20,000 bases of DNA from an uncultured bacterium (GTDB lineage Bacteria > JAGOEH01), in contig CAZWDO010000020.1 of the NCBI GenBank assembly GCA_964632485.1, positions 52,607-72,606 on the forward strand, given 5' to 3'. Numbering within the stretch: position 1 is the stretch's first letter; every line of letters begins with the position of its first letter. The position numbers and the translations under genes are program-made. Below, piece after piece: positions 6,734-13,098 of this stretch. The notes under the pieces were generated by a model, which saw only the letters and a program-made list of their open reading frames with translations, was not told the DNA's origin and ran no database searches.

Positions 6734-8377
6734 ATGTTTAAACAAGTATCTTTTAAGACTAAATTACTCGTCCTTTTAGTAGGCATCAACATCCTGATTA
6801 TTCTCTTCATGCTTATCTATTTCCCGAGCCAGACAAAAAAGGCTGGAATGGCATTTATTTATGAGAAAGCGAAAACCGTGACGAAAATGACCGGAGCAGC
6901 AGCCAGTGTCGGGCTGATGTTCGAGGATCAGGGATCAATCAATGATGCTCTGAATTTAGGTAAACAAACCGATGAGTTTCTATTTGTTGAAGTTTTTAAT
7001 AAAACAAACGTATCGATTGTGGGTATCAACCATGAAAAAATGGCGATCGATCCCAAACAGTTTATCTCCGAAGAAGAAATAATGTTTAAAGAAAGCGGCG
7101 ATACGCTCTATTGCGCCTATCAAATTGACGATGGGAGCGGAGGGAAACTGGGATTAGTCGTTATGGGTTTCACCCTGGAAAATACCTTTAAGAGTTACCA
7201 GAGCAATTTCCGGATTACCTTGTTGGTTTCTGTCATCATGTTGATCATTATGGTCATTTTTAGTATCTTTATCGGCCGCTTAGTAACGAAGCCTATCTAT
7301 TTAATGATAAATCGAATTAAAGATATTGCGCAGGGTGAAGGCGATTTAACCAAAAAAATTGATTATAACAGCCACGATGAGTTTGGAGAGCTGGCCAGTT
7401 GGTTTAATATTTTTATGGACCAATTACGCAAGATAATTATTGAAATTAAAAGTAATGTTACAGTAGTTGATAAAGCAGTGGTCCTTATCACTGATATTAC
7501 TAATCAATTGACGGAAGACTCGAAGATGCAGAATTCACAGATTCATCAGGTAGCTTCGGCAATTGAAGAAATCACTTCAACAATTATTGAGACCAGTAAT
7601 AATGCCAATCAAGTATCTGAAGTGGCTCAAATTGCATCGGATCTTTCTGTGAAGGGTACTGAAGTAGTCCAAAAAGCGATTAATGAGATTCGGACGATTG
7701 CGGACATTGTTAATAATGCCGCTGAGATTATTCGAACCTTGGGTAAAAGCTCCGACGAGATTGGTGAAGTGATATCCGTGATTGATAATATTGCCGATCA
7801 GACCAACTTATTGGCGTTGAACGCCGCAATTGAAGCTGCGCGCGCAGGTGAACAGGGGCGTGGATTTTCAGTGGTTGCCGATGAAGTTCGCAAGCTGGCG
7901 GAACGCACGACCAATGCGACCAAAGAGATCGCCGATATGATTAATAATATCCAGAAGGATACAGCGCAGGCGGTAGAATCGACCGAGTATGGTACGAAAT
8001 ACGTAGAACAGGGCGTTGCCTCGAGTAATGAAGCGGGCAGTAACCTGGGGCAAATTAAAGAGCGAATCAATACGGTACTGGAAATGGTTAAAAATATCGC
8101 GCTGGCTGCCCGGGAAGAATCTTCTGCATCGGAACAAATATCGGAAAATGTGGTTACCATCACAGAAATTATTAATAAAAATTCGGAACAGGTCGATATG
8201 CTCGGCAGTTCAACGCAGGAACTTTACTCTAAAACCGAATCCCTGAGAAATCTTGTTGGTAAATTCAAGTTGGGCGATATTACCGATGAACCGCGCGCCG
8301 ACAAGCAGCCGACTACGCCTCAACCCCCTAAACCAGGCTATAAAAGACCGGCAACCGGACTGCGGCAAGTCGTATAA
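6734..8377 (+). CDS. Methyl-accepting chemotaxis protein (two TM helices, periplasmic sensor, HAMP, signalling domain)
   Basis: AAGGAG RBS, two hydrophobic helices, HAMP ([12 protein letters not shown]...[11 protein letters not shown]), hairpin-tip motif [40 protein letters not shown]. Confidence 0.97.
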
Positions 8378-8917: not shown

Positions 8918-8990
8918 GCGGGAATAGCTCAGTTGGTAGAGCTCTACCTTGCCAAGGTAGTTGTCGCGGGTTCGAGTCCCGTTTCCCGCT
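8918..8990 (+). tRNA. tRNA-Gly(GCC)
   Basis: GCGGGAA/TTCCCGC acceptor stem, TAGCTCAGTTGGTAGAGC D-arm, CTACC-TTGCCAA-GGTAG anticodon arm, GGTTCGAGTCC T-arm; CCA not encoded. Confidence 0.97.
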
Positions 8991-9003
8991 TTTTTTTTTG
9001 TAT

Positions 9004-9075
9004 GGCGACATAGCCAAGTGGTAAGGCAGAGGCCTGCAAAGCCTTTATCCCCCGGTTCGAATCCGGGTGTCGCCT
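9004..9075 (+). tRNA. tRNA-Cys(GCA)
   Basis: GGCGACA/TGTCGCC acceptor stem, GAGGC-CTGCAAA-GCCTT anticodon arm, GGTTCGAATCC T-arm, U discriminator; CCA not encoded. Confidence 0.97.
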
Positions 9076-9090
9076 CGTTTTGGAAATGGC

Positions 9091-9176
9091 GCCGAAGTGG
9101 CGAAATTGGTAGACGCACGGGACTTAAAATCCCGCGTGGCTTCAACCACGTACCGGTTCGAGTCCGGTCTTCGGCA
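9091..9176 (+). tRNA. tRNA-Leu(TAA)
   Basis: GCCGAAG/CTTCGGC acceptor stem, CGGGA-CTTAAAA-TCCCG anticodon arm, long variable arm, GGTTCGAGTCC T-arm. Gly-Cys-Leu order matches E. coli glyW-cysT-leuZ. Confidence 0.97.
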
Positions 9177-10439: not shown

Positions 10440-10584
10440 TTCAGCTCCTTTCAAGCGATAGCGAGAGAATACAGTCTATTTATTTTAATGAAAAGTCTCA
10501 TTGGATAGTTTTTTCCCAATGATGTAAAAGCATCCAGTTTTATTACGTCAGCCATCATGAATCGTGATTCGTCACGTTTAACAA

Positions 10585-10611
10585 GAGGCCCTGCATTAGG
10601 GACAGGGCCTC
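10585..10611 (-). terminator. GC-rich hairpin downstream of trpB2; possible weak terminator
   Basis: GAGGCCCTG-9 nt-CAGGGCCTC perfect 9-bp inverted repeat about 30 nt after the trpB2 stop; only a weak U-tail (UUGUU) on the minus strand. Confidence 0.5.
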
Positions 10612-10642
10612 CTGAGTATTGTAACACGTAGTAATGGGGAGA

Positions 10643-12001
10643 TTATACCTGGGGAAGATGATGGGTGTATTCATCGATTTTCTGAGTCGGAAGTTCGTAG
10701 TCATGTAGTTTTCCATCGATATAGGACTGGTAGGCGCCGAGATCGAGAAAACCGTGCCCTGAGAGGTTGAACAAAATGGTTTTGGGGGTACCGGCTTCTT
10801 TGCAGTCAAGGGCGTGTTTGATGGCGGCTTTGATGGCATGAGCGCTTTCCGGGGCCGGGATTATGCCTTCGGCTTTAGCAAACAATTGCGCGGCGGCAAA
10901 GACTTCCAATTGATGGTAGGTTTCTGCTTCGATGATATCCAGATGTTTGAGATGGGAAACCAGGGGCGCCATTCCATGATAGCGCAATCCGCCGGCATGG
11001 ATTGAAGGCGGGATAAATTTATGGCCTAAAGTGAACATCTTAACCAAGGGCGTTAAACCCGCTTCATCGCCGAAATCATAGGCAAAAACTCCTTTAGTCA
11101 GAGTCGGGCAGGAAAAGGGCTCAACCGCAATGATGCGCAATCCATTTTGACCCTTGGCGATTTTTTCGCGGACAAAGGGGAAACTCAGCCCGGCAAAATT
11201 GCTGCCGCCGCCAACACAAGCCAAAATAATATCCGGATAATCGCCGGCTATTTCCATCTGTTTAAGGGCTTCTTCGCCAATGATAGTCTGGTGTAATAAA
11301 ACATGGTTTAAGACGCTGCCCAGGGCATAGTTCGAATCATCCCGCTGAGCGGCAATTTCGACGGCTTCGCTGATAGCTATGCCAAGTGAACCCGGGGAAT
11401 TTGGATCTTCAGCTAACACATCGCGACCCGCCTGAGTCTGAGTCGATGGGCTGGGAGTTACGTTGGCGCCATAGAGTTCCATAAAGGCTTTCCGGTACGG
11501 TTTTTGATCGAAACTGACCTTCACCATGAAGACCTTGCATTCCATATCGAAATGGCTGCAGGCGATAGAAAGCGCGCTTCCCCATTGTCCGGCGCCGGTT
11601 TCGGTAACTAAGCGCTTTATGCCGGCTTTTTTGTTGTAATAGGCTTGGGCAATCGCTGTATTAATTTTATGGCTGCCGCCCTGGTTCACACCTTCGTATT
11701 TAAAATAGATTTTGGCGGGTGTATCCAGGATTTTTTCCAGTTGTTTGGCGCGAATCAGAGGACTGGGCCGCGCGATTTTGTAGAAATCTAAAATTTCATC
11801 GGGAATCTCTATATAGGGATCAGAGGCCATCTCCTGTTCAATCAGAGTCATAGGGAAAATGGCTTTCATATCGTCCGGGGTAACGGGCTGTTTGGTTCCG
11901 GGATGAAGATGGGGCGCCAGCGGTTCCGGTAAATCCGCCATAATATTGTACCAATTGCGCGGCATCTTCTTCGGTTCGAGGTAAAACTTCGTGGTTTCCA
12001 T
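10643..12001 (-). CDS. trpB2: Tryptophan synthase beta chain type 2 (TrpB2, TrpB-like PLP enzyme), stand-alone
   Basis: 452 aa with the TrpB2-type N-terminal extension (WYNIMADLPEPL), PLP lysine motif GSHKINTA, TETGAGQWG, YALGSVLNHV, CVGGGSNFAG, YDFGD, IHAGGLRYHG, PAPESAHA, LSGHG; AAGGAG RBS; no trpA adjacent. Confidence 0.95.
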   Translation of the reverse strand: METTKFYLEPKKMPRNWYNIMADLPEPLAPHLHPGTKQPVTPDDMKAIFPMTLIEQEMASDPYIEIPDEILDFYKIARPSPLIRAKQLEKILDTPAKIYFKYEGVNQGGSHKINTAIAQAYYNKKAGIKRLVTETGAGQWGSALSIACSHFDMECKVFMVKVSFDQKPYRKAFMELYGANVTPSPSTQTQAGRDVLAEDPNSPGSLGIAISEAVEIAAQRDDSNYALGSVLNHVLLHQTIIGEEALKQMEIAGDYPDIILACVGGGSNFAGLSFPFVREKIAKGQNGLRIIAVEPFSCPTLTKGVFAYDFGDEAGLTPLVKMFTLGHKFIPPSIHAGGLRYHGMAPLVSHLKHLDIIEAETYHQLEVFAAAQLFAKAEGIIPAPESAHAIKAAIKHALDCKEAGTPKTILFNLSGHGFLDLGAYQSYIDGKLHDYELPTQKIDEYTHHLPQV

Positions 12002-12028
12002 GACAACTCCTTAGTTTAGGTTTGGGCT

Positions 12029-12062
12029 AAAAAAAAAGCCGTGATTCTGTAATCACGGCTTT
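12029..12062 (-). terminator. Second (gene-proximal) intrinsic terminator of the trpB2 leader, segments 5:6
   Basis: Transcript AAAGCCGUGAUU-ACAG-AAUCACGGC followed by U9 (A-tract at 12029-12037); perfect stem. Confidence 0.9.
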
Positions 12063-12064
12063 AT

Positions 12065-12102
12065 AAACGAAAAGCCGTGAATAGCATCTGCTATCCACGG
12101 CT
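12065..12102 (-). terminator. First attenuator terminator of the trpB2 leader, segments 3:4
   Basis: Transcript AGCCGUGGAUAGC-AGAU-GCUAUUCACGGCU followed by UUUCGUUU; 13-bp stem with one G-U pair. Confidence 0.8.
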
Positions 12103-12115
12103 GAATATTGCTGGC

Positions 12116-12220
12116 TCAGGAATCAGCTTCGGTGGGTAGCAGAACTTCACAGTTCCGCCACCAACCACCATTTAGTATTAAAAAGGACTTGGACTCCGGT
12201 TCATGCTCATACTTTTTCAT
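12116..12220 (-). CDS. trpL: Trp attenuator leader peptide, 34 aa: MKKYEHEPESKSFLILNGGWWRNCEVLLPTEADS
   Basis: Short ORF upstream of trpB2 with tandem TGG codons (12163-12158) in a GWWR context, like E. coli TrpL. The codons overlap the 1:2 hairpin (12135-12162). Below the ORF-track length cutoff. Confidence 0.88.
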   Translation of the reverse strand: MKKYEHEPESKSFLILNGGWWRNCEVLLPTEADS

Positions 12221-12226
12221 AGATTC

Positions 12227-12255
12227 ATTATAATAAAAAATTGAGAACTTGTCAA
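12227..12255 (-). promoter_or_regulatory. Perfect-consensus sigma70 promoter for trpL-trpB2
   Basis: TTGACA (12255-12250), 17-nt spacer, TATAAT (12232-12227), then 6 nt to the trpL ATG. Confidence 0.9.
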
Positions 12256-12279: not shown

Positions 12280-13098
12280 TTAATTCGCATTTTGAATAGA
12301 GGACCCTCCTGAAAGATCCTCAGTAATAGTGGGATTTCCTTTATATCTCACCGCGCTGCCGCCGGATGCGGAAACGGTTAAAGCATCAAGTACCGTCAAT
12401 TCGGCAATAGACCCCCCTGAAAGTTCCAAATCGGCCTGAGCCATTTGGAGGGAAAAAGCGCGCATAATCGACCCGCCGGATAGTCCCCGGAGTCTGAAAT
12501 TTTTGCCATGACCGGATAAAAAGAGGACCGAGCCGCCGCTGCCGCCACCTCTGATTTCTTCTGCCGAGAGCGCTAAGGTCATTTCACTGCCCCCGGATGT
12601 TTCAAAAGTCAATGTCTCGGCGCCTAAGGTCAAATGGCATTCGCTCCCACCACTCAGATCGATATCAAAGTCCGATGAAACAATTGAATCATTGCAGGTT
12701 AGATATGAACCACCGCTTCCATCAATGCCCCGAAGGGTCTTGAAAGTGAGAATCGCTTTTTTATGGGCGTGATTATCCTCGTCAATATTATCATCCAGTT
12801 CCAGAATCAGCGTTCCATTTTGGATTTTTATATGAATATAGGGAAGATAGGCTTCGGGAGCTTCAATGGTGATCGATTCTGTTGCGCCTTGAACCAGGGT
12901 CACCTCAAATCCGTTATGAACTTCAAAACGATTAAAACTACCCAAATCCCGGGTTTGAGTAATGACATTTCTCTCATCCAGTTCGATACCGTTTGTTCGG
13001 CAACTATTCATAATTAGTAAGGAAAAAATAGTCAAAATAGTTGCGGTGACTTTTTTAACTATAAGCAGACCGGAAGGGGGGAAATGGATATTTTTCAT
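12280..13098 (-). CDS. DUF2807 / head GIN-domain beta-solenoid protein, probable lipoprotein
   Basis: Hydrophobic N-region ending LLIMNSC (lipobox-like); TQTRDLGSFNRFEVHNGFEVTLVQG; about seven SGGS-type repeats; C-terminal ASGGSAVRYKGNP; AAGGAG RBS. Confidence 0.85.
   Translation of the reverse strand: MKNIHFPPSGLLIVKKVTATILTIFSLLIMNSCRTNGIELDERNVITQTRDLGSFNRFEVHNGFEVTLVQGATESITIEAPEAYLPYIHIKIQNGTLILELDDNIDEDNHAHKKAILTFKTLRGIDGSGGSYLTCNDSIVSSDFDIDLSGGSECHLTLGAETLTFETSGGSEMTLALSAEEIRGGGSGGSVLFLSGHGKNFRLRGLSGGSIMRAFSLQMAQADLELSGGSIAELTVLDALTVSASGGSAVRYKGNPTITEDLSGGSSIQNAN

Follow-up and report, generated by a model that had tools for sequence, protein, structure and literature searches.

A putative tryptophan attenuator with two serial terminators and a linking alternative helix upstream of a stand-alone trpB2-type gene

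The leader of a trpB2-type gene in the window, by which we mean the whole 20,000-nucleotide stretch of DNA analysed here, is probably a ribosome-mediated tryptophan attenuator of six segments, in which two intrinsic terminators stand in series and a relay of RNA helices would control both of them. Its parts, together with the promoter and the gene, are as follows.

12227 to 12255, minus strand: sigma-70-type promoter, TTGACA at 12255-12250, 17-nt spacer, TATAAT at 12232-12227; 12 of 12 consensus positions.
12116 to 12220, minus strand: leader ORF, ATG at 12220, TGA at 12118-12116; 34 codons plus the stop.
12135 to 12162, minus strand: 1:2 hairpin, segment 1 at 12162-12151, loop GUGA, segment 2 at 12146-12135; -20.8 kcal/mol.
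12087 to 12146, minus strand: 2:3 antiterminator, segment 2 (12146-12132) with the 5' arm and loop of T1 (12098-12087).
12065 to 12102, minus strand: terminator T1 (segments 3:4), 13-bp stem at 12102-12073, tail UUUCGUUU at 12072-12065; -22.2 kcal/mol.
12053 to 12080, minus strand: 4:5 alternative helix, UCACGGCUUU (12080-12071) with AAAGCCGUGA (12062-12053); -15.4 kcal/mol.
12029 to 12062, minus strand: terminator T2 (segments 5:6), 12-bp stem at 12062-12035, nine U at 12037-12029; -16.6 kcal/mol.
10643 to 12012, minus strand: Shine-Dalgarno site AAGGAG at 12012-12007 and the trpB2-type gene, ATG at 12001, 452 aa.

A preliminary description of this DNA had listed a leader ORF with adjacent Trp codons, a 1:2 hairpin over these codons, a 2:3 antiterminator with 11 of 12 positions paired, a 3:4 terminator with a T-rich tail, an extra 5:6 terminator ending in U9, arms AGCCGUG/CACGGCU common to both terminators, a perfect 10-bp helix between segments 4 and 5 that is not followed by a U-tract, and a stand-alone trpB2 downstream. 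All of these elements were found on the minus strand where it had placed them.

The promoter was the sole 12/12 match to TTGACA-17-TATAAT within the 4 kb scanned. Because the leader ATG comes only 6 nt past the -10 hexamer, the leader ORF is probably translated from a leaderless transcript, its start being estimated from the promoter geometry; no alternative canonical in-frame start was seen in the ORF, and there is no space for a Shine-Dalgarno site. The encoded peptide is MKKYEHEPESKSFLILNGGWWRNCEVLLPTEADS, in which W20 and W21 correspond to 12163-12158; the window leader thus has two Trp codons, compared with three to five in most relatives. Our sample of the phylum consists of three genomes, namely the window genome, G001 of the same family and G002 of the same order, and the promoter-to-ATG geometry was identical in 3/3: in both G001 (promoter 11/12) and G002 (10/12), TTGACA and a -10 hexamer stand 17 nt apart ahead of trpB2, the leader ATG comes after six more bases, and the 30-codon leader contains WWW or WWWW and is followed by two hairpins with AGCCGUG/CACGG(C/U)U arms. 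Leaderless initiation was also considered as a family-wide trait but is not supported, as the tight geometry was seen in 6/33 leaders of the wider family among the matches listed and a Shine-Dalgarno site is present in the trpE leader of the same genome. The next ORF upstream of the leader promoter (272 aa; window 12280-13098, minus strand) gave no NCBIfam match.

The minimum-energy structure of the 221-nt leader consists of 1:2, 3:4 and 5:6. Its energy of -77.9 kcal/mol compares with -52.3 +/- 4.9 kcal/mol for 200 shuffled sequences (z = -5.27), and no shuffle was as good. The 1:2 hairpin, whose segment 1 overlaps the Trp codons, appeared in both the minimum-energy and the centroid folds. In the 2:3 pairing, 12143-12132 lies opposite 12098-12087 with 11/12 positions paired, and the region from segment 2 to segment 3 folds at -20.6 kcal/mol. 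T1 and T2 share the arms AGCCGUG/CACGGCU and both pass the terminator scan, which gives the T1 tail as TTTCGTTT; the 4:5 helix is a perfect 10 bp and is followed by UUACAG, not by a U-tract. The leader therefore holds on sequence what a classical attenuator is made of, that is, clustered Trp codons, an intrinsic terminator, an exclusive antiterminator and an upstream hairpin overlapping the codons.

The GCCGTG..CACGGC hairpin occurs at 6 sites in the 4.45-Mb genome, and T tails were found only at the two in the trpB2 leader; the possibility of a generic host terminator motif was thus rejected, as the T-tailed hairpin is restricted to this leader within its own genome. In G032 and in G041-G044 the hairpin is likewise present only at such attenuators, and the reverse-pattern control gave 0. 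An assembly duplication of the second hairpin was also rejected, because T1 and T2 differ in the loop and the inner stem and the layout recurs in independent assemblies.

The downstream protein is a TrpB-like PLP enzyme, with scores of 741.1 bits against NF009057 (cut-off 366) and 666.5 bits against TIGR01415, and its gene is separate from the genome's trpE..trpB operon on contig C2. That operon has a leader of its own ~180 nt upstream of trpE (C2:288174-289532; locus L271:1358-1433 in G000), with a W-containing ORF, a Shine-Dalgarno site and two terminators carrying GGCUGUG/CACAGCC arms in both T1 and T2. On the other side of the trpB2-type gene, no terminator-like site was found in window 10454-10643 (minus strand), that is, between it and a same-strand fabD-like gene 188 nt downstream, and the attenuator may therefore also affect the fabD-like gene.

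The leader would work as follows. Transcription would begin at or beside the leader AUG. When charged tRNA-Trp is plentiful, the ribosome would pass W20 and W21 and continue to the leader's stop codon, which precedes T1 by 14 nt; segment 2 would be re-paired with segment 1 or kept from segment 3, 3:4 would form, and RNA polymerase would stop at T1, while a polymerase escaping T1 would encounter T2. When Trp is scarce, the ribosome would stall on the Trp codons and cover segment 1, segment 2 would pair with segment 3, and segment 4 would be left single-stranded to pair with segment 5 once that is made. The 5:6 hairpin would then come too late, because segment 4 would capture segment 5 as soon as it is made, and both terminators would be passed. 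The only evident promoter is separated from the gene by T2, with its 12 bp and nine U, so expression would need some way past this terminator. This relay, in which 2:3 frees segment 4 to sequester segment 5, had been inferred in the preliminary description from the one leader, and the comparison described below, with the layout recurring in G001, in G002 and at no fewer than ~100 loci, supports it.

The 2:3 antiterminator covaries in the family. We compared the pairing of the upstream 57 nt with the 5' half of T1 within each element and between different elements, using 33 elements after three near-duplicates had been dropped from 36. The native mean was -21.0 kcal/mol and the non-native mean -15.4 kcal/mol (among the matches listed), and 0/10000 permutations reached the native mean; kinship inflates this permutation test, but the effect is large nonetheless. 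The variable inner stem of T1 changes together with segment 2. The check for covariation among related leaders that had been suggested for this DNA was thus borne out for 2:3, and, as detailed below, the arms of T1 and T2 change in concert.

The tail of T1 contains at least six T in the next 9 nt in 34/36 elements among the matches listed, where the search had imposed one T only. The T1 stems range from -14 to -31 kcal/mol and the T2 stems from -14 to -21 kcal/mol (36 elements, among the matches listed); because the T1 stems are the stronger of the two, T1 is by sequence criteria a full terminator. Weak T1 tails were seen in G001 (UUUAUCGAUU) and at L149. In alignment A1, which comprises 99 elements chosen from 132 candidates for a leader-like ORF, with one wrong-strand row removed, the T1 and T2 stems are 99.7% paired, with 130 cells changed on both sides compared with 30.2.

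Conservation of the 4:5 helix was seen in several comparisons, three of which (a T1-anchored scan, a Y/R pattern and the own trpE leader) did not presuppose that helix. They have to be read with the reservation that most of the sequences were gathered with patterns fixing part of the arms and that the relatives are non-independent. In metagenomes, a scan that required just WWW and T1 gave at least 120 stretches, from which 105 unique matches with enough flank were taken. Real attenuators, defined by a leader stop before T1 and a U-rich T1 tail, numbered 59 of these 105 among the matches listed, and a second terminator-like hairpin follows in 50 of the 59. All of the 50 second hairpins listed pair with segment 4 at -11.2 to -24.4 kcal/mol, and a second hairpin with unrelated arms was found in none of these 50 tandems. 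A C.A mismatch inside the 4:5 core was found in 6/50 (among the matches listed), where T2 has GCCAUGG/CAUGGC and T1 kept CACGGC; these six still give 4:5 duplexes of -16.4 to -20.9 kcal/mol.

Arm changes at the core were examined with a pattern that, at two core positions and at the outer arm position of each segment, accepts both purines or both pyrimidines, every combination being admitted. This Y/R pattern matched 37/68 sampled genomes of one class, and its reversed control gave 0. Subtraction of 6 reverse-strand duplicates and one coding chance hit from 54 strand matches left 47 sites, and 6/6 core pairs of 4:5 were kept at 47/47 of them. The core was CACGGC/GCCGUG at 34 sites, CAUGGC/GCCAUG at 9, CAUGGC/GCUAUG (G.U) at 3 and CAUGGC/GCCGUG (U.G) at 1, and the mismatching C.A type was found at 0 of the 47. 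The CAUGGC type is present in both arms of both hairpins at its loci. Three arm types change in concert in T1 and T2, the third being the GGCUGUG/CACAGCC of the own trpE leader; these concerted changes may trace to only about three events.

In A1, 93.8% of the 4:5 cells pair, and sliding the partner lowers this to 26-46%. Changes on both sides were counted in 36 cells, compared with 21.4 +/- 3.8 after shuffling (0/500); 5/9 pairs change on both sides. At the C.A core position, 3/99 rows are unpaired. The outer arm pair differs between T1 and T2 in many members, with 17/99 rows unpaired in 4:5, which argues against a simple homogenisation of the two hairpins. The near-invariance of the arms fits the proposed relay, because segments 3, 4 and 5 each have two partners and this would slow their divergence.

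The second terminator is not obligatory, as shown by single-terminator relatives: the second hairpin is absent in 9/59 of the real T1-anchored attenuators among the matches listed, and L145 and L141 in G032 are of this kind. At L145 and L141, a segment-4-like strand at the leader stop codon pairs with the terminator arm; the sequences suggest that the tandem form arose when an old antiterminator strand became the 3' arm of a new upstream terminator. Other variants were also seen. Four metagenome loci (L170, L176, L230 and L238) keep a segment-5-like strand while its 3' partner, segment 6, has decayed; the strand is perfectly complementary to segment 4 in L230, where the U-run is kept, and degenerate remnants are left in L170, L176 and L238. 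Six near-identical loci (L154, L157, L166, L172, L196 and L208), two of them from human gut by name, fell outside the filter for real attenuators; each has a WWW run and then a single GCCGUGG..CCACGGC terminator directly before the Shine-Dalgarno site, and looks like a single-terminator relative.

When the ribosome footprint was masked, the transcript through segment 5 folded as 2:3 plus 4:5. In thermodynamic terms, 2:3 plus 5:6 (-39.4 kcal/mol) is slightly better in the window than 2:3 plus 4:5 (-38.2 kcal/mol), and the relay would therefore rest on kinetics. The direct path from 4:5 to 5:6 has a barrier of 7.5 kcal/mol with a drive of -1.2, and the same method gave a barrier of 5.8 kcal/mol with a drive of -4.7 for the change from 2:3 to 3:4 in the E. 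coli K-12 trp leader; these Findpath values bound the direct-path barriers from above and do not give rates. Judged in this way, 4:5 is predicted to be no worse an antiterminator than the proven one of E. coli trp.

Pattern scans found at least ~100 further copies of the module, whose leader ORFs are rich in Trp, in Phe/Tyr or in Leu/Ile/Val and which precede trpE, trpB2, a transporter gene, or genes for DAHP synthase or ADH synthase. When the exact arms of segments 4, 5 and 6 were searched for in one genome per species, at least 119 stretches were obtained, and 57/129 strand matches also had the T1 5' arm (among the matches listed). From 62 full-pattern matches, among them the window and L002-L005, 36 elements were retained (among the matches listed); the 26 dropped were reverse-strand duplicates, GC-rich repeats, coding chance hits and duplicate records (L012 = L003, L126 = L005). 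The leader ORFs of the family have runs of W, of Y, or of F, Y and W mixed. Among 39 hand-kept elements, a downstream gene could be called in 37, and these genes were named after ten representatives and the window protein; among the matches listed they were trpE (13), trpB2-like (7), ADH synthase (5), DAHP synthase (4), ABC substrate-binding protein (3) and singletons (5). The carriers, also among the matches listed, include Thermodesulfobacteriota, Syntrophales, Syntrophobacterales, Desulfobacterales, Smithella, Melioribacter, Melioribacteraceae, Spirochaetota and others; in the cultured species Melioribacter roseus (L046), the module has a WWW leader and precedes trpB2. The WWW-plus-T1 pattern gave 2 matches over 401 genomes of the phylum of G041, a count obtained with a gap range so tight that G041 itself was missed.

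Several members of the family have features of their own. Runs of four or five Tyr codons are followed by the same two-terminator module at L026, L092, L116 and L127, and the first three of these leaders precede an ABC substrate-binding protein gene, which possibly belongs to a tyrosine or aromatic uptake system. The same module follows a Leu/Ile/Val-rich leader at L286 (G453:C24) and a Leu/Phe-rich one at L056, before a DAHP synthase gene; the two-terminator design is therefore not limited to aromatic signals. At L318 (G290:C74, ~7218-7622), each strand carries a two-terminator attenuator, ~350 nt from the other, and the pair probably serves divergent operons. In G002, trpE (L277, G002:C39) is located inside an operon ~5.5 kb downstream of trpB2 on the same strand, and the trpB2 leader of that genome may therefore control a long aro/trp operon; the gene directly before this trpE has, by reading, a DAHP-synthase-like end.

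We consider it unlikely that the leader is a classical attenuator at T1 only, with T2 an unregulated back-up or a relic of duplication and 4:5 a by-product of common descent. The two hairpins do look like duplicates of each other, the single-terminator relatives work without T2, 5:6 is slightly the more stable in the window, and the C.A mismatch in 4:5 is tolerated in the six tandems listed above. Against this, the 4:5 core was kept at all 47 sites of the search in which a mismatch was permitted, while the loops, the inner stems and the outer arm pair diverged freely, and the arm changes are joint in both hairpins in at least three arm types. An unregulated terminator of 12 bp and nine U would also cap induction, yet 50/59 of the attenuators among the matches listed keep the second hairpin. 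A chain of the his type, in which 3:4 is mainly an anti-antiterminator, termination occurs at T2 only and the U-run after segment 4 lengthens 4:5 against the A-run before T2, seems to us improbable. The strength of the T1 stems relative to those of T2 and the U-rich T1 tails of 34/36 elements (among the matches listed), which the search did not require, argue against it, although G001 and L149 have weak T1 tails, the window's own (UUUCGUUU) is not a perfect one, most members among the matches listed pair the U-run behind segment 4 with the A-run ahead of segment 5, and the his leader is known to operate in this way.

The near-invariance of the arm sequence, and not of structure alone, across phyla and across Trp, Phe/Tyr and branched-chain leaders would be expected if a trans-acting factor (a TRAP-like protein, a tRNA as in a T-box, or another RNA) read the hairpins and the leader ORF were incidental. 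This reading we regard as very improbable. TRAP-dependent trp attenuation uses ~9-11 (G/U)AG repeats at 2-3 nt spacing in the leader, whereas no such array was seen on reading this leader sequence. Rfam gave no match to the leader at gathering score over the window, and at E up to 10 it gave only L10_leader, mmgR and RsaE, weak hits that fall on the terminators by chance and stay far below the gathering threshold; neither the T-box (RF00230) nor Trp_leader (RF00513) matched at either setting. (The same search at gathering score found a cluster of three tRNA genes elsewhere in the window, at 8918-9176 on the plus strand, with 61-70 bits.) Cognate-rich leader ORFs, moreover, precede the 99 aligned elements, although an ORF of this kind was the ground on which these were chosen out of 132 candidates; segment 1 overlaps the regulatory codons, and 2:3 covaries as ribosome-mediated control expects. 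The relay through 2:3 and 4:5 thus remains our preferred reading.

Attenuation by leader peptides is long established in textbooks, chiefly for Proteobacteria and Actinobacteria, where each sensor has one terminator. Like trpL of E. coli and Salmonella (RF00513), the present leader has a short ORF with adjacent Trp codons in segment 1, mutually exclusive 1:2/2:3/3:4 pairings and an intrinsic terminator before the first structural gene, and its Trp codons are about as far from the terminator as those of trpL (~85 nt here). It differs from trpL in showing no match to RF00513 in sequence or structure, in the second terminator and the linking 4:5 helix, in a leader ORF that probably starts at the 5' end of the transcript, in the regulation of a stand-alone trpB2 in place of trpE, and in its occurrence in distant phyla. 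The his leader of Salmonella and E. coli, known from the literature of 1979-1980, has six segments that pair as A:B, C:D and E:F or as B:C and D:E; a stall at the first segment is relayed through B:C and D:E to block the last hairpin, which resembles 2:3 plus 4:5 here. Its middle hairpin C:D has no U-run and is not a terminator, and only the last hairpin terminates. The window leader has the same chain, with 1:2, 3:4 and 5:6 set against 2:3 and 4:5, but the feature that only the last hairpin terminates is not found in it, as T1 has a U-rich tail; unlike C:D, 3:4 has the make-up of a full terminator by the same criteria as above and has its arms in common with 5:6. Tandem riboswitches and T-boxes have one sensor per terminator, unlike the single sensor proposed here for both.

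Tandem terminators have been described in the rimP leader of some Gammaproteobacteria (Naville and Gautheret 2010, PMC2965389), which likewise has two serial terminators in one 5' leader; in the accessible part of that report, rimP has no leader-peptide attenuator. In mycobacteria, leaderless short ORFs act as cysteine-responsive attenuators (bioRxiv 10.1101/834739, in its accessible part), which resemble the present leader in having a regulatory short ORF at the 5' end of the transcript, as judged here from promoter geometry, and differ in phylum, amino acid and downstream mechanism. The term 'tandem attenuators' is used, in the part of the text accessible to us, for mgtCBR with its two ORFs (PMC3641672), and an excerpt of PMC4833913 cites Lopatovskaya et al. 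2010 (Mol Biol 44:128) for 'chains of RNA helices' in attenuation. No leader-peptide attenuator having two terminators came up in a full-text literature search; the study of Lopatovskaya et al. 2010 may bear on novelty. The preliminary description was aware of no earlier account of the six-segment layout. Chains of helices are already known from the his leader; what sets the present leader apart within ribosome-mediated attenuation is that its middle hairpin is a predicted terminator too, with the same arms as the last one.

A much wider reading, which we offer as a long shot, is that the module belongs to a large uncatalogued multi-phylum superfamily in which one leader peptide switches two terminators, and that the arm, which within one genome stays near-invariant from Trp to Phe/Tyr to branched-chain leaders (GCCGUGG/CCACGGC, with two variants that change in concert), is a handle by which a trans-acting protein or RNA, or released attenuator RNAs, would coordinate an aromatic regulon.

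If the relay is true, one ribosome stall would cancel two terminators, and repression would be multiplied without a second sensor. The interlocked pairings would provide a natural example of constraints that freeze a sequence, and for synthetic biology the leader would offer a compact two-stage terminator switch. The two-terminator design is common (37/68 sampled genomes of one class), is carried mostly by anaerobes of uncultured lineages and is absent from Rfam. It offers an annotation marker for aromatic amino-acid regulons in metagenome genomes, and evidence for trpB2 as a Trp-starvation gene in the organisms that carry it.
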